Positions 15,376 to 57,241 of a stretch of DNA of 64,000 nucleotides are shown here, piece by piece. This DNA comes from an uncultured Gammaproteobacteria bacterium (GTDB lineage Bacteria > Patescibacteriota > Patescibacteriia > Patescibacteriales > WJLG01): assembly GCA_964547855.1 (NCBI GenBank), contig CAZJPG010000001.1, positions 1,337 to 65,336 of the forward strand. The letters run 5' to 3'. The position numbers were made by a program, and so were the translations under genes. Under the pieces are notes generated by a model. The model searched no databases, was not told the origin of the DNA, and worked only from the letters and a program-made list of their open reading frames with translations. Every line of letters begins with the position of its first letter. Position 1 is the first letter of the stretch.

Positions 15376-15387
15376 AAAAATTGAGGA

Positions 15388-20261: not shown

Positions 20262-20298
20262 ACTCCTTGTTTATTCGAAGAATAACTAACTTGTTATT

Positions 20299-20328: not shown

Positions 20329-20331
20329 CTT

Positions 20332-21357: not shown

Positions 21358-21378
21358 ATTTCTTAATTCATAATTAAT

Positions 21379-22727: not shown

Positions 22728-23786
22728 TTAGTGATTACCATCCTTATGCTTCTCCGCTTGCTTCACTACCCAGCGCCAAAAATTCTTATTAGCCGACTTT
22801 GCCGCACTCTTAACCCCCTTGCCAACAGGCTTCGTTGGCAACAACAAGATCAACATTATATAACGCCAGAATCTTATCCTCACCAAAACAACGACCACAA
22901 GCACAGACAACAATATCAAAGCAGCCAAGACCAACCACGGACCAGCGCCAAGAGACCTTGCGCTAGCACCAAGCACTCCTGGTTTTTCTACTGAGAAAGC
23001 TATTTCATAGAAATTAACGACTTCATTCTCTTTATAAACCTTTATCTTGCCCCAATACTGTCCTGGCGGTAGCTTGGTTGGAAAATCAGCGACCACTTCA
23101 CCCACCGAAAAAGGCTTAACCTTCTTCATCGTCTTGTCCTCTCCTTCTTGTATCAACTTAGTTTTAGTTATGTCATAAACTTCCAAAGAAACTTTAGAAG
23201 GGGCGGTCTCCACATTGCCAGTATTCTCCACATTCATCACTACCCTAGTTCGATAAAATATCTTATCGAACACCTTGGACCAAATTTTCCAATTCCAAGG
23301 TGGGCCGAGTTTTTCAAAGTCAGGAATAGACACCATGCGCACCAAAAAATTGGCATTAGAAACATTTGTTAATGCCAAATCGATGTCTATCCTAGCGCCC
23401 AAAGCAATTGAGACGCCGCTGGCCTTGTCGCCATCAGGAAGGACCTTAATATTTATGTTACCAGAATAATTGCCCAACTCAGCGCTCTTCGGAATCTCAA
23501 AGGTAACTGTCATTGGAACCTGCAATTCACCTTTGGGCAATATAAACTCCTCGCCTTTATCTATTTTTATCCACGACTCCATTTCAGTGGCATTCACCTT
23601 GATAGTGGCTTTTAGATCTTCTTCAGCCGAAGATCTAAGGAGCATTATCTTTACTGGATAGGTGGCACCAGGAGTCAATTGGTGGTTTTTGATACGCGGC
23701 GGAGATACACCAAAGCCGGCATGAGCAGCGTTCGCCCAACCAAAAAATAACAATAAAAATAGGAAAGGCGCTAATTTTCTTAGCAT
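22728..23786 (-). CDS. two-domain beta-sandwich surface protein with C-terminal TM and basic tail (DUF916/DUF3324-like, CscA-like)
   Basis: 352 aa with a signal peptide (ANAAHAG). It has the same architecture and motifs as the genes at 55183, 56235 and 57242, for example NVENTGNVETAP versus ENLGNVHIQP. Confidence 0.45.
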   Translation of the reverse strand: MLRKLAPFLFLLLFFGWANAAHAGFGVSPPRIKNHQLTPGATYPVKIMLLRSSAEEDLKATIKVNATEMESWIKIDKGEEFILPKGELQVPMTVTFEIPKSAELGNYSGNINIKVLPDGDKASGVSIALGARIDIDLALTNVSNANFLVRMVSIPDFEKLGPPWNWKIWSKVFDKIFYRTRVVMNVENTGNVETAPSKVSLEVYDITKTKLIQEGEDKTMKKVKPFSVGEVVADFPTKLPPGQYWGKIKVYKENEVVNFYEIAFSVEKPGVLGASARSLGAGPWLVLAALILLSVLVVVVLVRIRFWRYIMLILLLPTKPVGKGVKSAAKSANKNFWRWVVKQAEKHKDGNH

Positions 23787-23988: not shown

Positions 23989-25758
23989 TCACGGATAATT
24001 CCAGTTTCCATCAAGATCTTCGACAACTGTAAAAGTATTTTCTCCGTCATAATCAGCTGATGGTATTCCCAGAGGCACTAATATGCCCCAATAAATATCA
24101 TCCGTCACATCCACTCCACTCGTTGGTCTACCAACAACTACATCAGCCGTGGCTGGGGTGGTTGAAGACATATTGGTTCCGACGCCATAAGCGAAGTTAT
24201 TTATGCCCCACTCTTGGTTCTCTATGCCGATCAACTCCGGGCCAACTCCATTACGCAACATGTCTGTACCAGAAACATCCGCGTCTATCGGAGTGTTACC
24301 AAAATTAACTATGGTGGTCGTGCTATTATTTGTTCCAGTATCTAAACCGGCCTGAATTATGCCGTAATCGATCATGGTTTCTGTAACCTCCAAAGCGGCC
24401 GTAGAAATAACTTCTACTCCATCGACTGTTGTATAACTACCTGAACCGAAAGCTGCCTCATCCCAAGCGGTTATTCTGGCGAACCAAGATGTGGCAGCGG
24501 CAGCTGAATCAGCATCGGTTGGAACAGTATGGAACGCCATCGTAGTACTGCAAACAAAAGTAGCTGTAGCGTCATTGTCCGGATCGCCGGTACAACCACT
24601 CAAAAAACAATACGTAGCGGTTGTATGATAGCAATCATTATCATCGGCTGTGCAGTTAGCACCACCAGAAACCGTACCTAAATATATAGTACTAGTAGCG
24701 CTAACCAAATCTGAACATCCATTATTATCCGTTATACTCGTCGAGCTCGCAAGCACGTCTGTGCCTGGGGCATTCTTGAGCCCAAGACCTATATTCTGCC
24801 CACCATTCAACGTTACATTGGAAACCGTTGGGGCCACATTTGTTATCGTATAAGTAGAAGTATCGCCATTGGCCGTACCAGCGAGATCATGCCAGTCTTT
24901 TATAAATACCCAGTAATTATAGGCCCTGTCTTTAGTTGGTGCAGTGTCTGTATAATCACAGCTCACATCTGGAGCACTCGAAGACCCAGTACAGAGAGTC
25001 GTACTAGCGCAACCAGAAGCTAATGTCCAACTATTAGTAGAACAAACATACATCTCTATGTCGTCTGCCCCGCCAGTTATATCAGTATCTGTGGATTCTG
25101 CGAATATAGTAAAAGTTCCTCCGGGGTCTTGATTATCGACCGAAGTATAAGCATCTACCAGTGTTGGTGGGTGATTCACATAAAAAGGACTTCCACCGTC
25201 GCCGGACCCTTGAGCGCCAATCTTTGAACAACGCGGATCACCAAGATGATTATCGCAGACGAAGGCGTACCACTCCTGGGTTTCGCTTGCCACGTTCTTG
25301 ACATCATTATACGTACAAGTAGCCTGTACGGTAGAGCTTGATTTGGCCGAACGACAAAGGCCAGAACCGCCTATACACCAAGGTTCTGGAGTAGCTATCG
25401 TCGAAGTCGCGGCGCTGCTAGTGCAAACTATCAACCAATAGTCATCGTCCTCTCCGTCGGTGGCAGTTCCCTGAAAACCTATACTAGCCCCAACATTGAC
25501 TGGGGTGGTTGAAGTTGATGTCGGATTTTCGGTCGGACCAGCCGTAAACCATGGAGGAGCGTTCATGACGGTGACGGTCGTGGATGCTTGGTCGGCCTTA
25601 GCGTCTAGGCCGAAATCTATGAAGCCTTTATTTTGATTCAAGCCAACTAGATCGAAATTCAAATTAAAAGAAAACCCGACAAAGAAAAGATTGACGAGAC
25701 AGATAATCACGAAAACCGGTAGTGAACGTTTGGCTTTTTCTTTTAATATTTTACCCAT
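23989..25758 (-). CDS. secreted Cys-containing beta-rich protein; stand-alone paralogue of the C-terminal ~520 aa of the giant protein
   Basis: The track ORF starts at GTG 25779. ATG 25758 (MGKILKEKAKRSLPVFVIICLVNLFF) gives a better signal anchor. Blocks WYAFVCD, VNHPPT, DPGGTFTI, YTITNVAPTV, GCSDLVSATSTIY and DVTDDIYWGI align with the giant protein's C-terminus. Confidence 0.7.
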   Translation of the reverse strand: MGKILKEKAKRSLPVFVIICLVNLFFVGFSFNLNFDLVGLNQNKGFIDFGLDAKADQASTTVTVMNAPPWFTAGPTENPTSTSTTPVNVGASIGFQGTATDGEDDDYWLIVCTSSAATSTIATPEPWCIGGSGLCRSAKSSSTVQATCTYNDVKNVASETQEWYAFVCDNHLGDPRCSKIGAQGSGDGGSPFYVNHPPTLVDAYTSVDNQDPGGTFTIFAESTDTDITGGADDIEMYVCSTNSWTLASGCASTTLCTGSSSAPDVSCDYTDTAPTKDRAYNYWVFIKDWHDLAGTANGDTSTYTITNVAPTVSNVTLNGGQNIGLGLKNAPGTDVLASSTSITDNNGCSDLVSATSTIYLGTVSGGANCTADDNDCYHTTATYCFLSGCTGDPDNDATATFVCSTTMAFHTVPTDADSAAAATSWFARITAWDEAAFGSGSYTTVDGVEVISTAALEVTETMIDYGIIQAGLDTGTNNSTTTIVNFGNTPIDADVSGTDMLRNGVGPELIGIENQEWGINNFAYGVGTNMSSTTPATADVVVGRPTSGVDVTDDIYWGILVPLGIPSADYDGENTFTVVEDLDGNWNYP

Positions 25759-25779
25759 ATTCTTAAAAGCGCATGGCAC

Positions 25780-25881: not shown

Positions 25882-26511
25882 TTAAACCTGATAAAAATAC
25901 ACATTGTCATCTCTGGTGTTTTCTTTCTCTTTTATAGTCAAAACCTTTTTATGGCGTATGAGAAAACCATACCAGACCTTTTTTGGTTCGACTTTAATAG
26001 TCTTTATTGGATCCAAATAAGGAATAATAAAACCAACGCTTATTATTACGGCATCGACACGTGGCTCGATCTTCAACTTGCGATAAAGCTCTCTTAAATC
26101 CTCTGGCGACAAGTAACAATAAACCACATTCGCCCTTTTAATATTTACCCTGTAATAATCACTGTGCAATATTCTCAACTTCTCCCTTTTCAATAAAGCT
26201 TGTAGCTTTGAAAGCCAAGCGCTAATAAGCCCACAATCCGCACCTATATATTCACCATCTGGCCATTTCTTTCTGGCCAAAGGCAAAAAACCAGAGCGCC
26301 CATACCCCAAAGAATAAAATACGGGTTTTTCTGGTGGATCCAACTCCTTAAGTATTCTCTCAATGACCTCCGGACGATGCGGAATGAACGGGACAAAGCC
26401 AAAAAATAAAAGATGCCGCAATATTAGCAATAAGCAAGTAAAGAACGTTGATACTATAACTATAATGATTATTTCTAAAATTCCCATTGTTTTCAGTTCC
26501 GAGAACGACAC
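25882..26511 (-). CDS. membrane-anchored hypothetical protein (weak class-I methyltransferase-like pattern)
   Basis: 209 aa. An N-terminal TM, then VFYSLGYGRSGF, which loosely resembles SAM-binding motif I. It is the last gene of the tightly packed run that begins with the giant gene. Confidence 0.5.
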   Translation of the reverse strand: MSFSELKTMGILEIIIIVIVSTFFTCLLLILRHLLFFGFVPFIPHRPEVIERILKELDPPEKPVFYSLGYGRSGFLPLARKKWPDGEYIGADCGLISAWLSKLQALLKREKLRILHSDYYRVNIKRANVVYCYLSPEDLRELYRKLKIEPRVDAVIISVGFIIPYLDPIKTIKVEPKKVWYGFLIRHKKVLTIKEKENTRDDNVYFYQV

Positions 26512-27068
26512 TCAAAGTATCCGTCGTTACTTAAAAAATAATTCAAATCATAAATAGCCTGCGAAAAAGCATCCTTATCTTGTCCATTATAAGAATCACC
26601 TGATGCTAGCTTGTACGTAAACCTATACCCTTTACAATCAGAAGACAGATCAGTCTCACCATCATCAAGTTTATACGTACCATCAGTAAAAACCTTTATA
26701 TGCAGCATTTCTACCGGATTGGAAGGATCTTTTATGTACAGAAAAGTAGCCTGATCCGGACCCTTTACTAAACGATAATTACCTTCTAAATAGTCCGGCA
26801 TGGCAAAAGTCGCGTTTATGGGCAGTGACTCAAAAAAACTAATGCGCGACCAAGATGCCGCCGACATCCTCATTTGCCTCGACTCCTCTACTTTTTGTTT
26901 CTGTATTTCAACTTTCTTCTCAGCTCCATTCTTAATAACAACGACCAATGTCGCAATGATTGCTAACACTAAAATTAAAACACCAGCCACTAACAGCTTC
27001 TTTTTGCTCCCATTAAAAGATTGACTTGAAAATGCTCCCCCTTTTTTATTCCAGGATTGAATGCCCAT
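26493..27068 (-). CDS. membrane-anchored hypothetical protein
   Basis: 191 aa. A single TM (LLVAGVLILVLAIIATLVVVI) and an extracytoplasmic domain. It overlaps the next gene by 19 nt. Confidence 0.55.
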   Translation of the reverse strand: MGIQSWNKKGGAFSSQSFNGSKKKLLVAGVLILVLAIIATLVVVIKNGAEKKVEIQKQKVEESRQMRMSAASWSRISFFESLPINATFAMPDYLEGNYRLVKGPDQATFLYIKDPSNPVEMLHIKVFTDGTYKLDDGETDLSSDCKGYRFTYKLASGDSYNGQDKDAFSQAIYDLNYFLSNDGYFECRSRN

Positions 27069-27105
27069 AAAAAGGTTTATTCTTAATTCTTAATTCTTAA
27101 TTTGA

Positions 27106-28299
27106 TTAACTATATCTAATAGCATCTAAAGGATTTAACAACGCCGCGCGTTTAGCCGGGAAATACCCAGTCAATGCTCCCAATAAAGCGGAGAATACCA
27201 CCATAAAAGTTAAAAACCATAGTGGGAAATAGAAAAGATCGACAGCCACTCCGCCCATCCTCTTAGCTATCAAGCCTAAAGCAATATTAAAACCAACGCC
27301 ACCGCCAACGCCGATCACCACACCAGATAAACCTCCAAAAAATCCCATAATAACAGCCTCGGCCAAAAACAATATCTCAATAGTCGCATTGGATGCACCA
27401 ATAGTGCGCATAATGCCGATCTCTTTAGTACGCTCAAGCAAGGTAACGGTCATAGTGTTAAACATGCCAATGGCCGAAACGATAAGGGCTATACCACCAA
27501 ACACGGCCAACATGACCTGAATACCAGTAAATATCTTATTAGCTTGTTCGACTGTCTTAGACAAAGCATTAACTATAAATCCCTTATCCAAAAACTCCTT
27601 TTCCGCCTGATTTATAACTTCACGGCTAGTGACTTTGACGCGTACTCTTTCGTAATAAGGTATCGATATTTGACCAGAGAGTTCTTTCAATGGAATATAA
27701 GCGAATAAAGACGTCTCGTCATCGACTATGCCTTTAACCCTATACTGCTTATTTAGTGGAGTCTCTTGAACCTTGCCATCACTAGTCGGAACCAAAACTT
27801 TTATCGAGATATATTCCCCTACTATATCCTTGGCTTCTTTGTCAAAGAGTTTAAGGACAGCAGAAGATAGCACGATGCGATCGGCCTCATTGTCACTAAA
27901 TAACTCACCATCGGAAACCTGAACACCGGCATAACGAAAATAATTAGAGTTGACGCTTTTTAACATTATACTGGCTGTAAGGTCGCCATAAGTGACGGAC
28001 GAGCTAAAACTGGCCAAGGGAGAGACATCGTCAACATTGTTCATATCTTTAAAATCTTCGACTGCCTGATTATCGATCACGATTATTTGTGAAGGAGGCG
28101 TAACGACATCAAGAGACAACATGGCCTCTCCGAAAACGATCTTCTCCAAGAGAATCTTCTGCAAACCATAACCAAGACCGACCAAGACCACAACAGCCGA
28201 AATGCCGACGCCGATACCTAAAATCGTCAACCAGGTTCTCATCGGTCTGGTGCGGAACATTCTAGTCGCCAAGGCGAATGTATCACTTGGTTTTATCAT
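27106..28299 (-). CDS. ABC transporter permease, MacB/FtsX type
   Basis: 397 aa. TM1, then a ~220-aa extracytoplasmic domain, then three TMs. Contains the FtsX-family segment LERTKEIGIMRTIGASN. Confidence 0.8.
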   Translation of the reverse strand: MIKPSDTFALATRMFRTRPMRTWLTILGIGVGISAVVVLVGLGYGLQKILLEKIVFGEAMLSLDVVTPPSQIIVIDNQAVEDFKDMNNVDDVSPLASFSSSVTYGDLTASIMLKSVNSNYFRYAGVQVSDGELFSDNEADRIVLSSAVLKLFDKEAKDIVGEYISIKVLVPTSDGKVQETPLNKQYRVKGIVDDETSLFAYIPLKELSGQISIPYYERVRVKVTSREVINQAEKEFLDKGFIVNALSKTVEQANKIFTGIQVMLAVFGGIALIVSAIGMFNTMTVTLLERTKEIGIMRTIGASNATIEILFLAEAVIMGFFGGLSGVVIGVGGGVGFNIALGLIAKRMGGVAVDLFYFPLWFLTFMVVFSALLGALTGYFPAKRAALLNPLDAIRYS

Positions 28300-28300
28300 A

Positions 28301-29620
28301 TTATGATTTATTGGCAGTATCCACTCCCTGTGTCAAAAGTTTTTCAAAATAAGAGACGATACTAAAAATTTGATCCGGCTTAAAACCAAGACCTTTCTTA
28401 TCTACTGGTGCCTTTAATATTTCTTCAAGTTCTTCTTTGCGCAAAAGACCAGAGACACGATCTCGGACGAGCTGCTTTAACCTCATCTTCTTCTCGCGAG
28501 TCAACGCTACTTTAGTCTCTTCCATTATATAAAAAAGTATATCACTTATCACCTTGTCTTCGCGATTATAGAAAACACCAGCGTTCATGCGACGACGATA
28601 ACGGCGAACATCCTCTGACTGCTTTAATATCTGCTCGATCTTGTCAGACATCGCCTTAGCTCGATCATCTGGAAGCCCTACTCCACCCTTAAGTATTGGG
28701 ACTTTTAAATACTCATAAAAAGTGTCCCTACTAACTTTGCGTGAAAGCATTCTGGCGGTGGCCTTCTCTAGCCTGTCTAATTGCAAAAAATCCAAATCTT
28801 GAGTTAAATAATTGATTATGCTTTTCACCTTAAGTTCTTCTGGTTGGGAATAGGGATATATTTTTGATAATATTTCGATCTCTGTGACCAATACTTTTTG
28901 TTTATCAAACTTAGCGATCTGTGGTCTGTCGGGATTTGGCACCACACGAAGCAAACGCCCGTCCTTCATATAGAAAACGCGATGGCAATAATGCAACTGA
29001 GCAGCATTATGGGTGATCATAATAACCGTTTTCTTATCGCGATCGCTCAACTCCCTTAAATAATCCATGACCTGATCGGATGATTTTGAATCAAGATTTC
29101 CGGTCGGCTCATCTGCCAAAAGAATGTCTGGGTTATTTACCATGGCGCGAGCGACGGAGACTCTTTGGCTCTGTCCTCCAGAGAGCAAAGCAGGATAAGT
29201 ATCGGACTTCGTTCCCACACCAAAACGATCTAAAAGTTCCTGCGACCTTTTACGACGCTTTGGATAAGGAGATCCCATGAATGTCTGGGGCAAGGCTACA
29301 TTATCTATGACCGACAAAGAAGGTATCAAGAAAAACGCCTGATAAATAATACCTATGGTCTTAGCTTGATAGGTTACCATCTCGGCCGGAGAAAAAGCGT
29401 AAGGATTTTCACCCTTAACCAAAAGCTCGCCAGAAGACGGCTTTAAAACACCTAAAATAGCGTAAAATATAGTCGATTTTCCACATCCAGACGGACCGAA
29501 AAACGAAACGAATTCGCCAGGGAACACCTCCAAAGAGAAATCAGAAATCGCCTTGAATTCATTCTTTTTTCCAAGGTTATAGACGACTTCTGCGTTTTTT
29601 ATTTTGATTATTGGATCCAT
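28301..29620 (-). CDS. ABC transporter ATP-binding protein (MacB/LolD-like) with a ~210-aa C-terminal extension
   Basis: 439 aa. Walker A GPSGCGKST, signature LSGGQSQR, Walker B LLADEPTGNLD. The extension carries two similar segments, LKVPILKGGVGLPDDRAKAMSDKIEQIL and LKAPVDKKGLGFKPDQIFSIVSYFEKLL. Confidence 0.8.
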   Translation of the reverse strand: MDPIIKIKNAEVVYNLGKKNEFKAISDFSLEVFPGEFVSFFGPSGCGKSTIFYAILGVLKPSSGELLVKGENPYAFSPAEMVTYQAKTIGIIYQAFFLIPSLSVIDNVALPQTFMGSPYPKRRKRSQELLDRFGVGTKSDTYPALLSGGQSQRVSVARAMVNNPDILLADEPTGNLDSKSSDQVMDYLRELSDRDKKTVIMITHNAAQLHYCHRVFYMKDGRLLRVVPNPDRPQIAKFDKQKVLVTEIEILSKIYPYSQPEELKVKSIINYLTQDLDFLQLDRLEKATARMLSRKVSRDTFYEYLKVPILKGGVGLPDDRAKAMSDKIEQILKQSEDVRRYRRRMNAGVFYNREDKVISDILFYIMEETKVALTREKKMRLKQLVRDRVSGLLRKEELEEILKAPVDKKGLGFKPDQIFSIVSYFEKLLTQGVDTANKS

Positions 29621-29624
29621 TCTT

Positions 29625-31238
29625 TTATTTACCCATTTTTTTGACCCAGCCGAAGGTACCTTCGAAGTTCTTCAAGATAATGTCGATGATATTCTCCTCT
29701 CTGCTTGGGGTCAATATTATGAAATCACTGGAACGAGCCTTGTTCTCTACATCGTCATAGCATTCCACCCAAAACTTATATACGGTAGACGGCAAAAGAT
29801 TGGTCGTTACTTGAGTATGCTTTTGAGTATAATCGGTCTCGATAGGCAATTCATCCACCTTGTCTGGGGCGGTCAATCCCTGATGAAAGAAAAACTTACA
29901 AACAGCCTGCTCGTCCGTTTCCCAAGAAACAATGGTCTGAACTTTATTATCCGACCCAGCATACAAAGTAGACTCGGTCTTGACTTTAGATACGACCGGC
30001 GGTATCTCGTCTTTTATGGTCAAAAAGGTTATTGGTGCGCTTTTGGTCTTATCTCCGTGCTCATTCTCTACGGTTATGACAGCCGAATAATAAGTATCGT
30101 ATTTCAAACTAGTCAAGCGGACGTTATGAATCGTCGTAAAAGCGGACGAGCCCTCCATTCTAGTGTCGTTATTGTCCAGATTGGTGTACTCGACCAAAGA
30201 GGAGCAAGGAATGTTCGTGGTAAAAGTTATAGTCGCTGCATCCTCCTCTATCTTGGCTATACTAATATTATATATCTCCGGCAAAACCGCCTTGGTCACG
30301 AAGACATGATCGGTCGAAGCACTCTTTTGACCAAGAGTTGTTTCCGAAGAGACCATAAAATGGTAAGTCGTGGCAGCATTTAAGCCGGTGACGGCAACTT
30401 CGTGATCAGTGACGGAATCTTCGAATTTACCCTCGGACCAACGGTAGGGATCTTCAACGGTCTCATTGTACTCGCCTTCCTGAACTAAAGACACTACAGA
30501 ATTAGCTTCCTTATTCGTTCTCCACTTTATGATAGCGTAATCCACGCCGGTCTCGACATCGATCTGATCAAGTATTATCTCCAACTTATCGGTCGCCGAC
30601 TCGGCTTGTTGCTCTATTTGCTGTTGAATTATCTCCAGAACTTTCTCGCTCTGTACTTGATTTATTTGCTGTAATATTTGAGTCAATTGTTCGGTTGTTA
30701 TCTCTTCGTTGACCGGCATCTCGAATTGGCCTTCCGTGGTCGATGGTCCAGGATACTGCCCTTCCTGCTCCGAAGGACCAGGGGATTTGCCCTCTTGCTC
30801 GCTTATGTTTTCCTCTTTAATCACCCCCACCGTCGTAAATGTATAATCACTGGAAATCGTCTGATTGCCATCTTGATCTGTCGATACCATACGAAAATAA
30901 TACGTAGTATCAGGAGCTAAGTCATCTAATAATATTTCATGAACCTTTTTGTCATAAAAAGGATCCCTAGCTATTCCATAATTACGATTCAAACCATAGT
31001 TGACCATCGAATCTGATTCTTCGTCGGTATTCCAGGTGATTATAGCCGAAGTGGCTGTCACCGACTCTACCCGAGAATTATATATCTGCGGCGGGATCTT
31101 ATCGTTCGATGCCGCTTCGGCGCGGTTAAAATCGAATGCCATCAAAACAAAGAAGGCTGTGACGAAACAAATCGCCAAAGAAAGAATGAAAACTACGCTA
31201 TTCGCCCAAAAAATATTCTTATTCATCTTTGATACCAA
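29625..31238 (-). CDS. membrane-anchored protein with about four FN3-like domains
   Basis: 537 aa with an N-terminal TM. Repeated pattern ...SAIITWNTDEESDSMVNYG...PDTTYYFRMVSTDQDGN. Linker SEQEGKSPGPSEQEGQYPGPS. TTG start sits 9 nt after GGGGAG. Confidence 0.7.
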   Translation of the reverse strand: MVSKMNKNIFWANSVVFILSLAICFVTAFFVLMAFDFNRAEAASNDKIPPQIYNSRVESVTATSAIITWNTDEESDSMVNYGLNRNYGIARDPFYDKKVHEILLDDLAPDTTYYFRMVSTDQDGNQTISSDYTFTTVGVIKEENISEQEGKSPGPSEQEGQYPGPSTTEGQFEMPVNEEITTEQLTQILQQINQVQSEKVLEIIQQQIEQQAESATDKLEIILDQIDVETGVDYAIIKWRTNKEANSVVSLVQEGEYNETVEDPYRWSEGKFEDSVTDHEVAVTGLNAATTYHFMVSSETTLGQKSASTDHVFVTKAVLPEIYNISIAKIEEDAATITFTTNIPCSSLVEYTNLDNNDTRMEGSSAFTTIHNVRLTSLKYDTYYSAVITVENEHGDKTKSAPITFLTIKDEIPPVVSKVKTESTLYAGSDNKVQTIVSWETDEQAVCKFFFHQGLTAPDKVDELPIETDYTQKHTQVTTNLLPSTVYKFWVECYDDVENKARSSDFIILTPSREENIIDIILKNFEGTFGWVKKMGK

Positions 31239-31295: not shown

Positions 31296-34200
31296 TTACC
31301 AATCAAGATCGTCCAAGGCTGCACTTAAAGTCGTAGAACCCTCGAATGTTCCAGCAGTGGTCGTCGCCGGCAAGCCGATTCCCCAATAAATATTATCAGT
31401 GACATCCGTGTCAGATATCGGTTTACCAAGAGCCAAGTTGACCAAAACAGGAATCGGCGACAAAGGATTGCCAGAGGAATAATTAAACCCAGAAGTTAAA
31501 CTCCACTCAACGTTATTAGCTGATATATAGCTATTAATGGCATTTCTCAAAGAAGATCCGTCCAAATCGCCGTTCAACGGAGAATTACCATTATTAACTA
31601 TGGTCACTTCTTGATTGGTCGCACCAGTATTATCACCAGGGCCCATGCCAGAACCGAAATCGATCAAATTTTCCGTAATATCCAAAGCTGAGTTAGTATT
31701 AAGCTCGACGCCAGCCGAAGATGTGGCTGAGTAGTTTGACCCATCATAGACTTGCAAACGAGACAACCAATTGTCCGCCTCCCATGGATTATTGGTCGAG
31801 TCGTCAGTAGGGATGGCGTAAAACTTCATGTTGGCTGTACAAGTGTAAGTAGCCACGTAATCGTCTGCTCCTGTGCAATTACTAACCACACAGTTAGCGG
31901 TACTTATCGGGTAACAATTATTTCCATTAGAGGAACAGTTATACCCACCGGAAACGCTAGAAAGATAGATCACGCCAGTGGCCGAAACCAATGACTGGCA
32001 ACCATTTTGATCGGTGACCGAAGCGCCTATTATCTGTACTTGTTTATCAGCTGCGCCTTTAATATTAACCGTTATCGGATTGCCATTATTTAAAGTTATG
32101 TTGCCGAGTACTGGTGCAACATTATTAATGGTATAAGTACTGCTGCGAGAGGCAGGAGAAGAAGCCGCGCCATGGCTATCAAAGACATATCCATAATAAG
32201 TATTGGCGCCTGGTGGGGTTGGGGCGGTATCGACAAAATCACAAGAAGGGTTGGATGACGTCAATCCAGTCGAAGAACACACTGTCTGACCAGAGGCACA
32301 ACCAGTACCGAAGGTCGCTGAATTCGTGCGACATACATAAAAATACATGGAATCATCAGGTCCATCGACATCCGTATCGGCTCCGGTCGCACTTATAGTG
32401 AATGTTCCTCCTGGGTCGCGGAAATTGACCGTGGTGCTTAGTGCTGTGTATGTCGGACGATGATTGACCTTAACTGGCGATGAGCTAGCTTCTTGCGGAG
32501 ATTCTCCTTGGCTGACGGTAGAGCATTTTGAAACGCCAGCGCCCCACTTCAAGTCGCAAGCAAAGGCATACCAATCCAAAGATTCCGTACTCGTCGATAC
32601 AGCATAAGAACAACTGGCCCAATCCGATGAGGAGGCTAAGCCGGAAATACAGTATGCTCCACCGGCACAAGTCGGGGCAGTGCCATTACCAGTAATAATT
32701 TGATCTGTCTTACAAACAGCCAGATAATACTCATTTAATTGAGCATCGGTGGCCATGGCCGAGAACGTGACATTCGTACCATTTAAAGTCGGAGTCGATG
32801 TCGCCGACCCACCATCGCTTGGCAAATAAGTGAACGTTGGGGCGGTATTAGTATTACCAGCTAAAGTAAGCTCGGCATAACGATCATAATAATCCAAAAG
32901 CGAACCAGAGGAATCGACGGCGCGGAAGCAATAAGTCGCTCCCTCACCAGCATTATCATTGGCGTTCAACACCCATTCTAATTCAGTATATTGATCCTCC
33001 TTTAAAGTAGACTGGGCGGAGCTAGTGCTAGGATCCTCAACGGCTGAACCAGTTATAAAATAATATCCTTCACTGTCCGAGAACTCTTGAGATGTCGGCT
33101 CGCCATTATTTATATAACTACTGGCGGACATCTCGAAGTGTTCGGTCGTAGCACTAACAGGAACGTCATGCCAATCTCCGATACCAGTCGAACAATTGAT
33201 CGAAGTAGAGGCATATTGCAAGCCAAAACGATATCCAGAGGCAGTACCGCCCGAAGTATTGGCAACCGACAAACGTAAGCGAATATTATTATTTTTAGTT
33301 ATATATGTACCAGTGGTCGGATCTCCTGTGTCCTCTGCCTCTCTCCAAGTGGCGATATTATTGTATTCGGTTTGTTGCGGCGTGATCGACTTAATGAATT
33401 TTCCGCTACCAACACCAATACTGGCCTGACTATTATAATTAGCCATAACCCAGTCTTTAGTGGCCTTGGAACTCATCAATCTCACTTCATCCATCTTACC
33501 ATCGAACAAGTATCCAATCCTTAATGGAAGAGTGTTGGCCGATGGTCCGGAAGAGAAAGTAGTGGAAGCTCGAGAAGATCCACCAAGATACAAATTCAAT
33601 CCTGATGTATCGCCAGTTAAAGTGAAATACTGCCAAGAGGTCGAAGCTACTGAATAATCGACGGTGCTAGTGCCATAGAAAGCTGATAGATATCCGGCCT
33701 TCAATGAAACTTGATACTCCTGCTTATCGATCAAAATCCTTGGATTAGACGTATATCTCATTCCCTCCGTAGTGGAAGATATGCGCCACTGTGCCTGATA
33801 ATCGGCTGCGCCATTAGAGACGAACATCACGAAAGTATTCCATCCTTGCTTAACGGTGTAATTAAAAGATTGATCGTCCACGACCATAGCTTGAGCGGCT
33901 GACTCGAAATGAACTTGATGTCCATTGATCCAAATGACCCTCGAATCGTCTGAACCGCAAGAGAAAGTCACTTGCTTTTCCCGCGGCGAATATATATAAG
34001 TCACCAAATAAGACTCGGCATTGTCAGCTGTACCATTCCAAAGGTCCGTGTTGGCGAAATTCACAGTGTACTGCGTTCCCGTATAAACACTAGCCAAACT
34101 AGTATCAATAACCTTCCAGAATCCTCCCGTGGCCCAAGTCGATTGTCCATACAAAGCCCCAGCGTAAGGATTTATGGCGGCAGGAGAGAAGCCGCCTGAC

Positions 34201-37200
34201 GGAGTGATATCCGTGCCGCCGGTAGAAGTCCAGTACATTCCAGCGATCTGATAGCGAGCGTAGCCACCAGTCTCAAAAGCCAAAGGCTTAGCTGTTGTAT
34301 CAGGGTTAAACCAACCGGAAGCAGTAAAATTACCGGTCATATCTAAAGAATTGGCATCGACCACCGATAAGTGATCATTGGTGCCGTCGAAATCGTCGGT
34401 GCCGTCTATATTGGTCGAACCATCTTCATCACCATCATACCCTTCAGTAGAAGCATTGTTAGCGTTGGAAGTGGAATCTAACCGCGTAGTCGAAGCACCT
34501 GCCTCATCAAGATGCCAAACCGCTTTGTAATTAGAATTCCACGTTCCAGCATTATTAGCTTGCGAGGAGCTGGTTGTGGCGTTGCCATAATATATGAATA
34601 GCTGAGTGTCTTTTTCAGCATAAAGATTTGGAACTTCTACCCAGGCTACCAACTCTCCAGTAGTGCGATCATATTTCTCTATTTGATGGTCCATTTTGAC
34701 TTGAGTACCAGAAGCATTGGTGAAAATTATATCCCAGCCAAAGCTGCCTTGTACATAACCGCCCGAGGAGGTTCCTCTTAAATCGGTGTCCGTAAAAGCT
34801 ATTAATACTGGGAAATTAGACAAAGAGGCCGTGCCAGGTATCTTATCTGGGTCAAGGACCATTTCCTTGCGATATAAGTAGTCATTGTCATACCAAGACT
34901 CTTGCCCAACATATCCATTGTCATTGCGCCAACGATAGTGCTTCTGACCAATAGAAGAAACCATGGTCGAGGTGGACACATAATATTGATCAGTCCTAAG
35001 AGTAGCACTGCCGGTGGTTTGATAAACTCGCCAATAGACATAGCCATTAGTGTCATAATATTCATTCATCTTATAGCCGACCGAACCTGTCAAAGTAAAA
35101 TCGGTGTTGGCCGCGGCACTATTATTATAAGAGACCGTTACCCAAGAATTTGTGCTTCCAAAATGATATACCTGCAAGTACACGGGATTACTGCTTGGAG
35201 CCAATGATGACTGGCCATTCCAATTGGCAGTGACAGCATAGTTATGGTCTTTGTGTTTAGTAGCGAAATTATAGATCGTATAGGCAGGGGTTGCTGTCAT
35301 GGTGTCATACGAAGAGTCATCAACAGAAACCGCAGTATAACCTGGATTATCAAGGAAATACGTCAAGTCATTATTGTTCGATGGCAACGAAGAAGGATTA
35401 TTCTTGGAATATTTTCTAGAAGCGGATCCGTTTATGGTCAATGTCGGATATACCGTATAGCCATCAAACGTCGAACTACCAGTACCATCGATCAATCGTA
35501 GTCTGTAAGTTTTACCAGCGATCGTATTGACCGTCTGCAAAGCAAAGGCTAGCTCGCTATAAGTATTCAACGGGAGATTGTAATTATTGGAAAGGTTAGT
35601 CCCCTCTTGCCACAAACCATTGGCCCAAGCATTGCCATTGACCGCACATTTGCGACCAGTCAAAGCATCACCGTTCGCACCAGACAAGCCATAAGAATAG
35701 CTTATGGCAGTACTACCACCGACATCGACCCAGACCCCTGGGGCGTCGGTGTTATTCTCGAACTGGACCTTATAACGCTTATTATAAGTTTGATCGGTGC
35801 CGACGTTCTCTATCTGGAAGCGAGCGACGAAACGCTGACCTTTTTCCATGTTATTCAATGGCACATCGGCTAAACCCGGAGAAGTGTTAAGATTCACCGA
35901 AGCTCCGTCGTCATTCTCTATCAAATACGATGTTTGATTGATGACATAACCGGCTGTCGTCGACGATATCATCATTGGCGTAGCGCTAGCCTTATTTCCG
36001 GCGCGATCGTAAGCCCAAATATTAAAGGTGTAATCCGAAGACTTAGCAAGACCAGCGACTGTTCCAGTGGAAGCTCCATTGAAATCGATCGCCAAAAGAT
36101 TCGTATCGCTATATTCGGAATCGTATTCGGTGACAGCGGTCGTAGAGCTCTTGGTATAGAAGATGCGATAACGATAGAAATTGGTCTCGACAGTGCTAGT
36201 TCCGAAACCGACGGTTATCGAACCACTGGTATTACTAACATAACTCAACCAACCAGGTGCCGTTGGCGGAGTCGTATCAACACGAAGGTGTGTGCTAGTG
36301 GCAGAAGAGAAATTAACCCAGCTCGCCGAACAAATATCATCATCATCGCAAACTAAAGCCTGCCAATGATAGGAGCCATCTGGGATGCCAGTTACCGAAG
36401 ATGTCGCGATGAACGGCGTAGCACTGAAATCGCTTGGAGCACCGACATAGTTCACCAACCAAACCTTAGAAGCACATGAATTATAAGCCGTTCCAGAGAT
36501 ACATGCTCCAACTGGGGCAGTCGTCGTCGTTATATAAGCCGTGCTCGTCGGAACAAACTGGAAAAAGACTGTCGGCATCTCCGCCGTATCTGGATCGCGA
36601 GCCTCGGCATACAAAACAACGGAATCCTGATTAGACCAATAATTTGCCGGCAAGGTGGTGGTGCCATTAACAAGACTTTGGGAAAGATTCTCTGCTAACT
36701 CTGGATAAGAATCGACTGAAACGCGCAACCGTATCTGATCGACATAGGCCGTAATATCAGTAGTGGAAGAATTCAGTGCATGGACGCGAGCATCAAGATT
36801 TATTATGTCATTCCAAGTCCAGCTAACCGGGGCATTCGAATCGTCGGTTATGTCTACATAATATGTGCCATCGCCATCGACACTGCCGAAATTAGTACCA
36901 TCGATAGTGGAAGTGGCTCCCCAATTTATTCCAGAGAAGATCGGTATTATCTTATAATCGACGAAATCTGGCCCATTAGTGTAACCCTCTATGCCAAGTT
37001 CGACGCCAAATATGGTCTTAGTCGAAGCCGGAGCATTATTAGCCGTGCCCAAAAGATAATTACCAGAATCGTTGGCAGAATTGCCAGGAACCAATCTATA
37101 AGCATAAGTATTATCGACTACATCCCAGGCGTAAGGAGAATCGATCCACCCAGAGGTAACTCCAGTAGTGTAGACATAAGTTTCTGTGACCGTATTAGAA

Positions 37201-40200
37201 GTTTGGAAAGTCACAGCAGTGGCGCTTGCTTTCTGTCCTGATTGATCATAGGCCCAAATATTGAAAGTGTATTCGGTGTTAGGCAACAATCCAGAAATAA
37301 CCGTCGACGTTCCATTGCTATAAGTCCTTGATCCAAGCCTTGGCTCACTGCTTGACCCGTAAAGAATGCTGCCCTCCGTCGGGATCGTCGCACCCTGAAC
37401 ATAGAAAATCTTATACTCTTGGAAATTAGCTTCTGTGGATGCCGAGCCAAAGCCCAAAGTCAAACTACTAGAGCGACGGCTGATCAAAGTTAAATTGCCA
37501 GGAGCAGTAGGTTTTATGGTATCGACACGGAAATTCGGAGTCGAGGCATTGAATTGCTCCCAACCAGAGCAAGCATATTGATTACAGGCTATGGCTTGCC
37601 ATTTATATCCAGTCGAAGACTCTGGGAAAGATTTGACCACGATAGCCTTATCGATCGCGCCCCTCTCTTCTTCGTTAGACAATGAAGTCTCTTCTTTATC
37701 CGAGGTCGTCAATGTGACCTTTATCCAGTCATACCAAACGTCGCTCAATGTCCCGTTGGCATGAGAAGATGTGAAGATACCTAAGTTTTGCGTATGATTA
37801 ACGCCTACTGGCTGGAATGTCGGCATGCTAGTAAAGGTAGCACAATCAGCCGAATAATAACCCTGGAATACGCCATCGTTCTTTACTAAACGAACACAAT
37901 CAGGATAAGCAGTCGCTCCAGCACCGTTATAATCATCCAAGTAACCATCGCCATCACTATCCCATTGTTCGGCAAAGTCGTTGGAAGGAGTCACTACCAT
38001 AATGGCATAACCATTATTAGATTGGGTCAACGGCAGATTATTCTTAACCATAATACCAGCCTTAGCCCAACCATTGGGATTGCCTTGGGCTATAATCCTG
38101 AGAGTGGCGTCGAAATTACCAGGGACAGTGCGATAAATCGCACCAAAGTAGTCATCTGGAGCGATCCAGACATCGGAACCATTAGCATGTATGCGTAGGG
38201 TCGAAGTCTCTGTAAAAGTAGTGCCGGCAGTACCGTCGTTATCCGCTAAACTCCACTCCGAACCTATAGAGCTATTATTGAAATCATCATACTCATAAAA
38301 AACATTGGAAGACGAAGCTTTAGGAAGACCGGCTAAAGGATTATTGTAATAAATATAATAAGAACCGAGGGCCGCTTCATTAGAGCTAGTTGCTATATCA
38401 GTTTGCAAGCGGAATTGAATGTTGGTCGAAGCATTATTCCAAACACTACCAATACGATCTATTTCCGTTGGCGTACCTCCGGCCAATTGCCAAACAACGC
38501 GCACATCATCACCAGAAGAGAGCGAGACATTGGTCGAACCAGTCCTAGTATCCATTGTTGTGGAGGCGGTATATCCAGCTGGCAAGAGGGAATGATTGGT
38601 GCCGAAATTTATCTTACGTCGATACTTCCAGTCAGTATTCCACCAAGAAGGCTCGGCATTCTTCCATATCTTGCTTGAACAGCTATTGTAAGTGGTATTC
38701 GTAAAACAAGGGTTCGCTGGCGTAGAAGTCGCTGTCGAGAAAGACGATCCATTACTAATCACCTGATAATAAAGATAGGTCTCTCCTCCAGAATTAGATG
38801 AAGTGGCATAGAAGCTAACAGTGCTCGAATTGGTCCAATCGCCATTGATCAAGTCAGTTGAAGTAGCATAGCGATATTGCGCCAAAGAAGTTGGATTAAA
38901 TAATCCACCACTGGTAGTGGTCGATGTTTCTGTAACTGCCTTGGCGGAGTTACCAGCTAGATCATAAGCCCAAATATTGAAATAATAAGTAGTCGAAGCC
39001 GACAAATTCAACACGGTCGTAGAAGCCGAACCATTGAAATTCATGGCTAATAGATCGGCATCCGACGATGATCCCCAAAGACTATTGGCTTCAGTGACTC
39101 CTGCGGTATTGGCCTTGTAAAATATCTTATACTCGGCGAAATTAGCATCATATGAAGTTGCACCCAAATTCAACGTGACATCGGTTGGATTCTTGCTATC
39201 GACCGTCATGCTTCCAGGGACACTAGGAGCTACTGTGTCGACACGGAAATTCGGAGTCGAAGCATTGAAAACTGCCCAATTTTTCGAGCAACCATCCTCA
39301 TTACAAACCAAAGTCTGCCATCTATAACCATCGGCGGAGTCCGGTATGTTCGTGACGTAGGCCAAAGAAGATGCTCCCAAGAATTCCGAACTGGACGTCG
39401 AGAAGAAAGCGGCGTTATTGTTCATATTCTTATATTCCGTCGATATCCAAGTAGAGCTACGAGTCGTGGAAGAGATTCTGACCTCGTCCATATAACCAGT
39501 GAAATAACGTTCGCTAGTGCCTGGGCGACCGAAGCGCATGGCAGTATCCCAACCGCGAGTAACGGCAGTGCCAGAATCGGAAGCCACAAAACCACCATCA
39601 AGATAGAAGGAACCGGTCGGAGCAGTATTTAGATTAGAGAAAGTGGCAGCTGCATAATGCCATGAAGTAGTATCAGTAAAGGCATTATAAGTGATAACAC
39701 TATTGGCTTCCGTATCGCCGAAATACATACCGATATAATTAGGATTAGTGGTATAACCCAAGCTCATGTGCATTTCCTGCCCAGTTCCCCAACCATTTTG
39801 AGAGACGTCTCCTTCCCAAATCAACATGCTCGAAACAGTGGAATCGGCATCGAACCAAAGCGACACCGTATAATTGGCGATAGCGGTCGAGTCAAGTTGC
39901 GCAGAATCCGTCTGAACATAATCTCCGGTACCATCGAAGTGGTGAGAATATCCAAATCTAGTGCTTCGCGGATCCGGAAGGTCGCCATTAAATGCACCGG
40001 TATTACCGCTGGCCGAATCTAACAACGAACCAGATGTCTGATTAAAATGCCAAACGGTAACATATTCATTCGACCAAACAGCGCGACTACCATAAGTGGC
40101 AGTGGCCGCTGGCTGCGAAGCTGTCGACGAACCGTAATAAAGGTAGAAATCCGTGGAGGTGGAATTTTCGACAAGGTCGGCGCGGAAATATATTTCACCG

Positions 40201-43200
40201 GTCTTTGAAGAAGTAGACACTGAGACCACCTCCAATGGCAATCTAGTTCCAGAGGCGTTCGCCACTAATAAGTCTCCTCCGTCTTCTCTCATTTTCGTCC
40301 AAATATTATTATTTGGACCCAAGTGAGACATATCAAAATACAAAGGATAATAGGTTAGATCGCCATCGACTTGAGATGCTTGAGCGGTCAACTTAACACG
40401 ATAAGGGAAGCTATGATCAGCCCAATTCACTCCTGAACGCCAGATCTTCGAAGCACAGCCAGCATACGAGGTGCCACTATTACAAAATGATTGCGGTGTT
40501 GAGGTAGAAGTAGTAAAAGAGGATGTCGTTCCTATTACCTGATAATACATAGAGACGACACCTTGAGCACCGGACGATGTCGCGGTAAAACCGACCGTCG
40601 AAGAGTTCGTCCAAAAACCGTTAGGCATGATCGTCGCCCCCTTCCACTGGTTTAGGTCGGTTGGGTTAGAGACTAAATAGCTAGTCCTAGCCGATAACTC
40701 GACCGTTCCGCTGGCCTTATTGCCAGCCAAATCGTAAGCCCAAATATTGAATACGTAATTAGTGTTGCCAGAAAGACCGGTTATGGTAGTCGAGCCAATT
40801 CCGCTATAAGTACGTGATGAAAGATTAGAGTCAGACGAAGAACTCCAAAGCATGTCCGACTCAGAGACTCCACTAGTATCGGCGCGATAGAATATTTTAT
40901 ACTCGGCGAAATTAGCTTCAGTCGAAGCCGAACCGAAATTAATAGTTATCGAATTCGGAGACTTAGAATCGAATGTCAAACTACCAGGATTTGTCGGCTT
41001 GGTGGTATCCACGACGAAATTTGGAGTAGATGCGTTAAACCCAACCCAATCACTGCAACCATCCGAATTGCAAGCCAAAGCTTGCCACTTATAGCCCGTT
41101 GAAGAATCTGGTATCCCGCTCAAAGGAATACTATTTACCGATACTGATGATCTTATTGTTTCCGAAGAGGTCGCAAAGAAAGTCTTTGGTGATGACAAAT
41201 TATTATACTGCGTCGATAGCCAGGTAGAGCTTCTCTCGGTGCGAGCTACGCGTAATTCGTCTATAGTTCCAGGCCAATTTGTCCCTCCACCGACGTTAGC
41301 GCACAAAGTCAGATCATTGGAAATATTGTCAAAAGGTCGCGCCGCGATCACAGCATTAAGAGCTGTATGATTATCGATATAAAAATTTTGAGACGTCTGA
41401 GTGTTGTTCATAGTGGCGGCCAAAGAATACCAAACACCGGCCGTCTGAGCAGTGGTAGTGGACAAGTTCAACCAAGTGGCATTGGCATTATTGCGAACGC
41501 CGAATTGTATATTGGTCGAACGCTGCCAAAGGCGCCAACCAGTGACATCCTTATGCAACATGTAACCAGCCTCCGTACCAAGACCTTGTTTACCCCAAGC
41601 TGAGACAGTAAAGCCAGCAGAGTTATCCTCAAAAGGAGATCTTATCGCAGCAGAATCTGTAATAACAGCGTATTGAGTCGCTCCATCGCAAGTCAATCCA
41701 TCACCTAAAACACCAACGCCAACCGTGGCCCCGTAATTAACGCCATTCCACGAAGACGACGCTGAATTCTTAAGACTGCCATTCTCAAAATGATAGACCG
41801 CGCCGAAAGGTTTACTCCAAACGCTATACACACCATAAGCAGAAGACGAAGCTGGCTGGGAAGCGGTCGAGGAACCGTAATAAAGATAAAAATCGGTAGA
41901 GGTCGAATTCTCGATCAAATCAGCTTTGAAATGAACTTCGCCGGTTTTAGCGGAAGTATCAACAGAAACTACTTCGACCGGCAACCTAGTACCAGAAGAA
42001 TTGGTAATGATTATATCGCCGCCGTTCGATTTAACATGATTCCAAAAAGAATGGCTAGAACCCAAAACGGAAAGGTCGACTGATATTGGGAAATTAGTAA
42101 GATCAGCATTTACAAAAGAAGATTGCGTCGTGATCTTAGCGCGATATAAGAAATCATTGTCATACCAAGACAAAGAATTCTTCCAAATCTTACCAGCGCA
42201 ATCACTATAAGAAACGTTATATGCGCAAGCGATCGGTGGTGTAGTAGTGGTCGTATTAAAAGCGCTAGCGATCGGTACTAATTGAAAATAAACATCGTCG
42301 GCTGTGGAGCTGGCTGACAAATTAACCGTACTCGAATCGCTCCAACCACCATTGTCTATTTGAATGGAAGTATGTCGATATTGCGCAAGATCTTCTGGGT
42401 CGCGAGGATAACCAGCGGTAGTGACGGTTAATTCCGATAAGGACGGAGTTCCATGCCCATATGCATCATAGGCCCATATTCTGAAAACATATTGGGTTCC
42501 GGCAGAAAGACCATTTATCGTGGTGGTAGCCTTGCCGTCGAACAATATATTTCCAAGACTAGCATCGGAAGAAGATCCTAGTAAGTTATCGGACTCCGTA
42601 ACTCCAGAAGAACCAGCTTTCCAATATATCTTATATTCGGCAAAATTCGATTCGGTCGTGGTAGCGCCAAAAGACAGGACCAATGAAGTCTCATTTCTTC
42701 TATTGATCGACAGGTCACCAGGAGCGGTAGGGCTTATGGTGTCGACTCTAAAATTAGGGACAGTGGTATTGAATGGCACCCACATTGAACATGAATTTTT
42801 GGAATCGCAAGAAATCGCCTGCCACTTATAACCATTTCCCGATTCTGGAACGCTCGTAATATTAACTGAGTCAGAGACGTAGCTAGTATAATTCTCCTCA
42901 GTGCTTGTCGACAAGAAGCTAGCTGGCGCATTCTGATTCTTATACTCCGTAGACAACCAAGTGGCCGAACGAGTGGAACTAGAAAGCCTGACTTCGTCCA
43001 TATCTCCATTAAAATCTTCGTTAGGATTAACATCGGTGGAAATACGGCGACCCAAATAGAGATTCCAAGTGTTGGTATCGGCGGTATTGCTAGTATTATA
43101 GTTTCCAGTCAATGGAACAGAAGTATTATTTATATATATAGCTTTAGTATTGGAAGAATCGACGCGACTATAAACAAGATTGTTCCAAGAACCAGAAGTT

Positions 43201-57230: not shown

Positions 57231-57241
57231 GGCTATTATCC

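Follow-up and report, generated by a model that had tools for sequence, protein, structure and literature searches.

A C-terminal four-domain module shared by a giant secreted protein of Patescibacteria and a free paralogue, compared with Pam pili and WxL clusters

Patescibacteria (CPR, for candidate phyla radiation) are believed to live attached to host cells, and their largest genes encode giant LamG/DUF2341 proteins that are assumed to be adhesins. We analysed a 64,000-nucleotide stretch of DNA (contig CAZJPG010000001.1 of assembly GCA_964547855.1, positions 1,337 to 65,336; hereafter the window) in which such a giant protein ends in a rigid stalk of four beta-sandwich domains, D1 to D4, with D4 at the very C-terminus. 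This module occurs both with cargo, as the tail of the giant, and without it, as a free protein, the gene of which lies beside that of a protein family designated F352. It is fairly probable, in our judgement, that the module serves assembly or attachment and is handled by F352. DUF2341/FhaB proteins of more than 4,000 residues have been reported from ABY1-type Patescibacteria, for example Patescibacterium danicum, and were inferred to be adhesins; no conserved C-terminal module, free paralogue or F352 partner was described in that work (PMC11809585). These presumed adhesins were the closest match in the literature searched, where no description of the module, its free paralogue or F352 was found.

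Two described surface systems invite comparison. Within the same superphylum, the subunits of Pam pili (PamA/B/E) have immunoglobulin (Ig)-like domains with disulfides and assemble by donor-strand exchange into a truncated C-terminal Ig domain, and the operon also encodes FimC/PapD-like chaperones with a C-terminal transmembrane helix (PamC/D), a tip protein (PamT) and a membrane anchor (PamR) that carries an extra N-terminal strand (10.64898/2026.03.03.709456; NCBIfam NF058581 for the pilins). The WxL/WxLIP (Csc) clusters of Lactobacillales and Bacillales form the second comparison system (PMC9772566, PMC10599100, PMC1534035). The minimal WxL cluster consists of a large protein, a small protein and a third one made of a signal peptide, two Ig domains and a transmembrane segment; according to prediction, WxLIP inserts a beta-hairpin into WxL (PMC9772566, PMC10599100).

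The module and its free paralogue

The window is AT-rich (GC content about 43%) and nearly every gene lies on the minus strand, as do all features for which coordinates are given below. The giant secreted protein (31296..48521; 5741 residues) was delimited from the list of open reading frames (ORFs), its translation, Pfam matches and an N-terminus conserved in orthologous giants. It starts with a signal peptide with a putative cleavage site between AVRA and SE, behind which come a small N-domain, which is conserved, and a linker that is acidic and rich in S/D; according to Pfam, its middle part consists of repeated DUF2341, LamG (Laminin_G_3) and fn3 units and leads into the four-domain tail. 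The stand-alone paralogue (23989..25779; 596 residues if read from a GTG codon) begins with a hydrophobic segment, a signal or anchor, after which come D1 to D4 only. Its listed GTG start at 25779 is probably wrong and the true start is probably the ATG at 25758, giving 589 residues, because its closest homologues (P0002 and P0003) have this length and begin at the methionine of MGKILKEK.

An earlier note on this DNA, made from the sequence alone, had claimed that the tail of the giant, placed at 31296-32860, is a paralogue of the 596-residue protein. Pairwise alignment bears this out. By BLASTP with composition-based statistics, residues 18-533 of the 534-residue tail matched residues 73-590 of the free protein with 205 identities over 529 positions (39%; positives 57%; E=3e-101), well past chance; the six motif blocks cited in the note were all found in both proteins, and its limits agree with a tail starting at GNTNTAPTF... 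(residue 5222, nucleotides 32856-32858). Identity amounted to 35% in D1, 46% in D2, 41% in D3 and 41% in D4. Each window copy has 16 cysteines, of which 14 are conserved among 59 homologues; these 14, located in D1-D3, are invariant or nearly so. Since identity spans all four domains and 14 of the 16 cysteines are conserved, the similarity is no artefact of the Cys/Gly-rich low-complexity stretches to which, as the note had cautioned, it might have been confined. A tblastn search found exactly two copies of the module in the window, namely the giant tail and the free protein.

The structure prediction that the note had also proposed, made with AlphaFold2 from a 59-sequence alignment, yielded a confident all-beta model (predicted local distance difference test score, pLDDT, 93.2) of four tandem beta-sandwich domains, with limits at tail residues 14-137 (D1), 138-255 (D2), 256-392 (D3) and 393-530 (D4). 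In the giant, the Cys-rich D1 (residues 5225-5348; 32478..32849) is supported by a model of pLDDT 93 and by domain hidden Markov models (HMMs), and its repeat D2 (5349-5466; 32124..32477) by the HMMs. The Cys-rich D3 (5467-5603; 31713..32123) was delimited from model, HMMs and synteny, and D4 (5604-5741; 31299..31712), which ends in ...LDDLDW-COOH, from the model and Foldseek, by which it resembles pilins, TasA and the GH123 N-terminal domain. The HMMs placed the corresponding domains of the free protein at 25189-25563 (D1), 24841-25188 (D2), 24421-24840 (D3) and 23992-24420 (D4). D1 and D2 are mutual repeats, since the D2 HMM matched the D1 regions (E 2e-6 and 5e-9) and the D1 HMM matched D2; D3 and D4 are each unique, and no copy of any of the four domains was found elsewhere in the window.

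At the sequence level, the module matched nothing in Pfam, NCBIfam or the PDB. Foldseek searches with the whole module returned generic Ig arrays only (mastigoneme, alpha-2-macroglobulin, titin). When D4 was modelled alone (pLDDT 94.3) and compared with the PDB, the matches included the N-terminal sandwich of a GH123 glycosidase (E 1e-4), the TasA fibre 8aur (E 8e-4, TM-score 0.47) and the donor-strand pilins CsuA/B, FimG, FimA (TMq 0.60) and the PapGII pilin domain. The likeness of D4 to donor-strand pilins and TasA is suggestive but weak.

A feature of the free protein is a conserved 'orphan' beta-strand located before D1 (25552..25593), which in the window reads DQASTTVTVMNAPP, directly behind the AKA of the signal-peptidase site. 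The consensus (D/E)x(A/V)TT(S/T)V(T/E)VxN(A/S)xP follows an AxA-type site in all 45 free proteins inspected, 40 of which fit a strict regular expression. In the giant, the counterpart AELTLAGNTNTAP forms the final strand of the domain before D1 and, in the AlphaFold2 model, lies outside D1. As the segment is outside D1 and the AxA site stands just before it, the mature free protein begins with the orphan strand, a candidate for a donor strand or for an extension of the N-terminus. The donor strand of chaperone-usher pilins and of TasA likewise sits at the mature N-terminus. The extra N-terminal strand of PamR is reported to have a corresponding position (10.64898/2026.03.03.709456).

A further observation on the giant concerns a block of about 510 residues of DUF2341/LamG type (residues ~4545-5056; window ~33354-34890), which is present in this protein and in its closest orthologue (locus L050). 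In most other orthologous giants the block is missing from this site, residue ~4545 being joined directly to ~5057.

Distribution of the module and its gene neighbourhood

A D4 profile was searched against 1.84 billion representative sequences with a cut-off of E<=1e-3 and retrieved 2,256 proteins (clusters), with lengths from about 560 to 7,203 residues. D4 proved to be a strictly terminal domain: 301 of 303 complete copies ended at most nine residues from the protein C-terminus, Trp was the very last residue in 161 of the 303 and lay within the last five in 248, and a G-x-[YFW]-x-G motif preceded the end by 11-14 residues in 165 of 275. Chaperone-usher pilins show a similar end, with a conserved C-terminal aromatic residue and a Gly some 14 residues before it. 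As to size, 201 D4 proteins had 500-660 residues, 61 were longer and 61 were fragments. Matches nearest the giant tail were contig-truncated pieces of orthologous giants. A search with the free form gave more than 150 matches, nearly all of 560-620 residues, and its named members were all Patescibacteria (Falkowbacteria, Parcubacteria, Dojka-, Doudna- and Peregrinibacteria), as were the named D4 proteins. Mid-size D4 carriers, one of them annotated as Nealsonbacteria, have DUF2341/LamG cargo and the D3-D4 pair in common, and other N-terminal cargos were CBM96/DNRLRE with a disaggregatase repeat (P0130) and LamG (P0167). The earlier note, which had advocated a survey of other genomes and cargos, was correct that the module exists with and without cargo, and both forms are conserved together across Patescibacteria.

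The extent of the shared unit differed among lineages. Large proteins ended in D1-D4 in Falkowbacteria and Parcubacteria and in D3-D4 only in Dojka-, Saccharibacteria, Shapiro-, Doudna-, Nealson- and Adlerbacteria, whereas the free protein always comprised D1-D4. The unit universal to large and free proteins is therefore D3-D4 (about 275 residues); the tail of some 520 residues that the note had regarded as the module holds for this giant, but not as the general unit. In a rough neighbour-joining tree of D3-D4, made without support values, tails and free proteins fell into separate clades within each lineage group, and therefore the duplication is old and both copies were kept. The D1-D4 tail of the Falkowbacteria giants may be derived from the free gene. 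It is worth noting that several metagenome-assembled genomes (MAGs) in the sample (L014, L015, L017, L022, L024, L030, L035-L037 and L050) bear the title 'uncultured Gammaproteobacteria' while their gene content and closest relatives are those of Patescibacteria; these titles are therefore probably mislabelled.

F352 (22728..23786), delimited from sequences, synteny and a family HMM, consists of a signal peptide, a pair of beta-sandwiches and a transmembrane helix at the C-terminus, behind which an SH3_3 domain is added in some lineages; its mature N-terminus is invariant, GFG(V/I)SPP. The F352 profile found nothing significant in the PDB, and no relationship with D4, the common G-x-Y-x-G motif of the last strand alone being aligned. 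Synteny was evaluated with domain and family HMMs in six loci obtained by exact protein look-up and in 45 loci from GTDB species genomes recovered with a 15-sequence alignment of close relatives. F352 lay directly downstream of the free gene in all 36 loci with enough downstream sequence (33 by automated count and three with overlapping ORFs), and a large D4-tailed protein was encoded upstream of the free gene, within the flank, in 23 of 29. Where the giant and the free-F352 pair were on separate contigs, these still belonged to the same MAG (L018/L039 and L019/L033). F352 is accordingly a candidate for a membrane-anchored chaperone or anchor of the module.

These distributions bear on the possibility that the tail is simply a duplicated, reusable Ig-like spacer, with the giant and the free protein acting independently. 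The generic Ig arrays returned for the whole module would suit a spacer, as would its degree of conservation, which did not exceed that of adjacent parts of the giant (46-52% in the module, 42-56% in the 600 residues before it). A spacer would not be expected to show a strict C-terminal position and a C-terminal Trp, or to be kept in both forms together with F352 across several classes of Patescibacteria, and we regard this explanation as very unlikely.

Five genes separate the giant from the free gene in the window: an fn3 protein (29625-31238), an ABC ATPase (28301-29620) and a MacB/FtsX-type permease (27106-28299), all assigned by Pfam, a small transmembrane protein (26493-27068), and a 209-residue protein with an N-terminal transmembrane helix (25882-26511). 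The ABC ATPase carries a helical C-terminal extension of about 200 residues. The 209-residue protein, conserved beside the free gene in Falkowbacteria loci, has a methyltransferase-like domain and a weak NCBIfam match (E 4.5e-4) to an archaeal protein-lysine N-methyltransferase; it may be an enzyme that modifies the surface proteins. This set of genes (25882..31238) was limited to Falkowbacteria-type loci, being present in L001 and L003 and absent from L005, L006 and L008. The MacB-type ABC transporter was therefore rejected as a core component, as it is confined to such loci.

The position of these ABC genes between giant and free protein in Falkowbacteria, and the strictly terminal occurrence of D4 on diverse cargo, could also be explained if D4 were a sorting or secretion signal comparable to the C-terminal domain (CTD) of the type IX secretion system (T9SS), recognised by an export or processing machine such as the adjacent MacB-type transporter, and perhaps removed afterwards. 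Yet all D4 proteins carry N-terminal Sec signals, the ABC genes are missing from the cassette in other lineages (also in L043-L049), and a conserved protein made of such a signal and three Ig domains alone would make little sense. No NCBIfam model of T9SS CTDs matched the module. T9SS signals are spread over many cargos per genome, whereas the window holds two D4 proteins, and free forms are about as numerous as cargo-bearing ones. We consider this the least probable of all the explanations discussed here.

Other genes lie around the cassette. Downstream of F352 are, as recognised by Pfam, synteny and paralogy, a Cys-rich Big_6 and dockerin protein (21379-22686), a 341-residue cohesin-like protein with a C-terminal transmembrane helix (20332-21357) and a cohesin and Big_13 protein (18501-20261). 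These accessory genes (18501..22686) were conserved in the cassettes of Falkowbacteria and Nealsonbacteria and not in all lineages; no Pfam match to cohesin or dockerin was obtained in the module itself, both being located on other genes of the cassette. Paralogous gene pairs flank the giant on its two sides (18501-22686 and 48677-52857): their cohesin and Big_13 proteins (586 and 614 residues) are 31% identical and their dockerin proteins (435 and 586 residues) are 43% identical over 245 residues. Together with the 341-residue transmembrane protein, these pairs hint at a surface scaffold of cohesin-dockerin type in a CPR bacterium. Between the surface-protein clusters lie two tandem FGE-sulfatase (SUMF1-like) proteins, 56% identical to each other (53345-55179). 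Further away, at 13423-16941, a TrwB/VirD4-like coupling ATPase, a treble-clef zinc-finger protein and neighbours, which are also found downstream of the cassette in L001, are probably part of a type IV secretion or conjugation-like system of Patescibacteria.

Comparison with Pam pili, WxL clusters and chaperone-usher pilins

About 7 kb upstream of the giant, the window contains a pam-like pilus operon (55183..63950), recognised by blastp, by matches to NF058581 (CPR_Pam_pilin_C) below its 55-bit cutoff, and by the Pfam domain WxLIP_PGBD. The NF058581 matches were located at the C-termini of a 346-residue protein (ORF 58625-59665; E 5e-9, 36 bits) and a 1,302-residue fn3 protein (ORF 60042-63950; E 3e-7, 31 bits), which have this domain in common with 27% identity by blastp. 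The principle of a large and a small protein sharing a C-terminal domain therefore occurs twice in the window. The C-termini of the two D4 copies (31299-31360 and 23992-24050) and of the Pam-type C-domains are alike, the latter ending in ...P(T/E)Y-COOH. The operon also encodes three adjacent paralogues of 383, 331 and 351 residues, each composed of a signal peptide, two beta-sandwiches and a transmembrane helix; the 351-residue protein (55183-56238) passes the Pfam gathering score for WxLIP_PGBD/DUF916, and the F352 family HMM matched the 383-residue one with an E value of 6e-8. These relationships suggest, as far as profile comparisons go, that Firmicutes WxLIP, CPR chaperones of PamC/D type and F352 form one superfamily. 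Moreover, the domain of 177 residues just before the module in the giant (residues 5057-5233; 32850-33353) is 43% identical to residues 547-716 of the 1,302-residue protein, so that the two systems exchange domains. The operon would extend the Pam system, so far known mainly from Saccharimonadia and Microgenomatia, to a Falkowbacteria-like genome.

The module system and Pam pili have several features in common. Both belong to the same superphylum and consist of Sec-exported, Ig-like subunits with paired cysteines (here with AxA sites, and the conserved cysteines given above), in the absence of a trans-envelope machine. In both, a C-terminal Ig-like domain, the assembly domain in Pam pili and a candidate for one here, is common to subunits of very different size, and neighbouring proteins combine a signal peptide with two beta domains and a transmembrane helix at the C-terminus. 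The co-encoded, two-domain transmembrane chaperone that characterises Pam operons has a candidate equivalent in F352, by architecture, by constant neighbourhood and by homology to a protein of the pam-like operon. There are also differences. Module subunits have four domains against two in Pam; the candidate donor strand is N-terminal here, whereas in Pam it is the inter-domain linker; and the cargo subunit is here a LamG/DUF2341 protein of 3,000-7,000 residues. Donor-strand exchange has been reported for Pam, while the module system is known from sequences and monomer models. The taxa differ as well, since the module is found in Falkowbacteria/Parcubacteria, Nealson-, Dojka-, Doudna-, Shapiro-, Adler- and Saccharibacteria. 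Neither the giant tail nor the free protein matched NF058581 at E<=1, and no further homologues of the Pam C-domain were found in the fetched loci.

Resemblance to WxL clusters is a matter of architecture. In both cases a small protein is accompanied by a large one that has the small protein's domain at its C-terminus, behind adhesive domains, and by a partner with a signal peptide, two Ig domains and a transmembrane helix, the proteins being secreted by Sec; the C-terminal domain is proposed to receive a beta-strand from the partner, and the paralogue family of F352 in the window passes Pfam WxLIP_PGBD. A WxL cluster is defined by at least one WxLIP protein and two proteins sharing a C-terminal domain, and at the present locus this pattern is found in architecture only. 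Of the two WxL motifs, the distal Trp of YWG(I/L) alone is invariant in D4, the proximal position being W, Y, F or H. Membership of D4 in the WxL family was therefore rejected at the sequence level, in view of the missing Pfam match and the unconserved first motif. Unlike the single WxL domain of 160-190 residues, the unit shared here comprises two to four domains (275-520 residues), one fold is common to its small and large copies, and the phylum is different.

These similarities raise the possibility of a static platform of WxL type, in which the D3-D4 units of giant and free protein would lie side by side on the cell surface, held by the membrane-anchored F352 and without polymerising, the free protein being the 'small' partner that stabilises the base from which the giant projects. 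The conserved triad corresponds to the minimal WxL cluster (PMC9772566, PMC10599100), and the 383- and 351-residue paralogues tie the F352 superfamily to WxLIP_PGBD. In addition, the comparable numbers of free-like and large D4 proteins argue for a partner of low copy number and not for the main pilin of a shaft. On the other hand, D4 lacks both the Pfam match and the first motif of WxL, the two copies share one four-domain fold, unlike the small and large WxL domains, and the conserved orphan strand would be left unexplained. Such a platform is a rather unlikely alternative.

With chaperone-usher pili and TasA, the common points are an adhesin that combines cargo at its N-terminus with a pilin-type Ig domain at its C-terminus, and a donor or orphan strand right after the signal-peptide cleavage site. 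The host is a monoderm, unlike those of chaperone-usher systems, and the D4 fold matches are weak. No Usher or PapD-family Pfam matches were found among the scanned ORFs of the window, nor any Pfam or NCBIfam match in the window to Peptidase_M73/SipW (TasA/camelysin).

Proposed assembly and its meaning for Patescibacteria

Full-length giants have a conserved, cleavable-looking signal peptide with an AxA site and neither an LPXTG motif nor a C-terminal transmembrane helix; therefore, they need other means of attachment after export. A second conserved end is present in giants and mid-size D4-tailed proteins, the mature N-terminus of which reads (K)INIYPGxY...W.N...QDL...NSAYI after the AxA site, followed by an acidic low-complexity linker (window 48300-48521; P0324, P0336, P0348, P0351, P0354 and P0399).

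We propose the following scheme. The large and the free proteins would be exported by Sec, after which F352 would bind D3-D4 of both through beta-strand complementation and act as chaperone, anchor or both, in the manner proposed for PamC/PamD on Pam pilins and for WxLIP on WxL domains. The mature N-terminal strand of the free protein (TTxVTV) would then insert into D4, either that of the giant or that of a further free subunit. Because it lacks the free N-terminal strand, the giant would be the distal, cargo-bearing subunit, comparable to a tip adhesin, and the free subunits would form the proximal stalk joining it to the cell. In our estimate, this Pam- or chaperone-usher-like reading, with the module as the end by which a surface structure specific to Patescibacteria is assembled and attached, has slightly less than an even chance of being right. 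The earlier note had read the module as an anchoring or polymerisation domain, as in pilin-like or surface-complex subunits. This meaning is partly supported and fits all findings, namely the C-terminal D4 on diverse cargo, its fold matches to donor-strand pilins and TasA, the F352 neighbour, the orphan strand of the free protein and the parallel pam-like operon; the matches to pilin folds are weak (TM-scores of 0.5-0.6).

Several observations weigh against the proposed scheme. The pilin matches of D4 are at the level of generic beta-sandwiches (TM-scores 0.45-0.6, root mean square deviation 4-8 A), near the noise for this fold; the best match is a glycosidase accessory domain (GH123) and not a pilin; and the D4 monomer model is a complete-looking sandwich of seven strands, predicted with high confidence, which leaves an open acceptor groove hypothetical. 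The D4 profile aligned with the window's two Pam-type C-domains with an hhalign probability below 1%, whether these were used as single sequences or as a two-sequence profile, and WxL (PF13731) had no match among 59 module members at E<=1. Similarity between F352 and WxLIP, in which DUF916 (PGBD) and DUF3324 (HBD) are joined to a transmembrane helix, is weak: Pfam WxLIP_HBD was matched with E 0.006 by three of 37 members and PGBD by none, and hhalign aligned F352 with the 351-residue WxLIP_PGBD-positive protein at E 1e-3 and a probability of 19%. Between the hydrophobic segment and the AxA site, the Falkowbacteria free protein has about 25-30 residues, and may therefore stay membrane-anchored instead of being released. 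Finally, the acidic linker close to the N-terminus of the giant could mark this end, rather than the module, as the one proximal to the wall.

The last two points lead to the opposite orientation, with the module as a Cys-rich, Ig-like receptor-binding head at the distal tip of an N-terminally tethered giant, and the free protein as a short-range version or competitor of the same specificity. The N-terminal hydrophobic segment of the giant, with an acidic low-complexity linker of about 200 residues behind it, is typical of wall-spanning regions next to an anchor, and disulfide-rich Ig-like domains such as D1-D3 occur in many adhesins. However, receptor-binding tips evolve fast, unlike D4 with its invariant motifs and C-terminal Trp in clusters across classes; signal peptides of the giants have conserved AxA sites; in most lineages large proteins carry D3-D4 only; and an obligatory membrane-anchored neighbour such as F352 would be hard to explain. 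A distal binding head is thus improbable.

On sequence grounds, the module falls outside the Pam pilin C-domain and WxL families and is best described as a distinct, undescribed family akin to the Pam and WxL systems. A broader hypothesis, which we consider doubtful, is that giant, free protein and F352 form an undescribed, Patescibacteria-wide class of donor-strand-assembled fibres, with F352 homologous to PamC/D and WxLIP (DUF916/DUF3324). If it were true, Pam pili, WxL clusters and the module system would represent one ancient monoderm counterpart of chaperone-usher assembly, in which the adhesins of several thousand residues with LamG/DUF2341 units would be tip subunits and the four-Ig-domain protein a stalk or adaptor.

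For annotation, the locus offers three new domain families, namely D1/D2, D3-D4 and F352. As regards the biology of these bacteria, the module, its free paralogue and F352 provide a testable answer to the question of how a giant protein without sortase motifs or membrane anchors is attached to a cell bounded by a wall. The system would extend the recently described principle of the Pam pilus to other CPR classes and to giant cargo, and suggests a link by homology with the WxL/WxLIP clusters on the surface of lactic acid bacteria.

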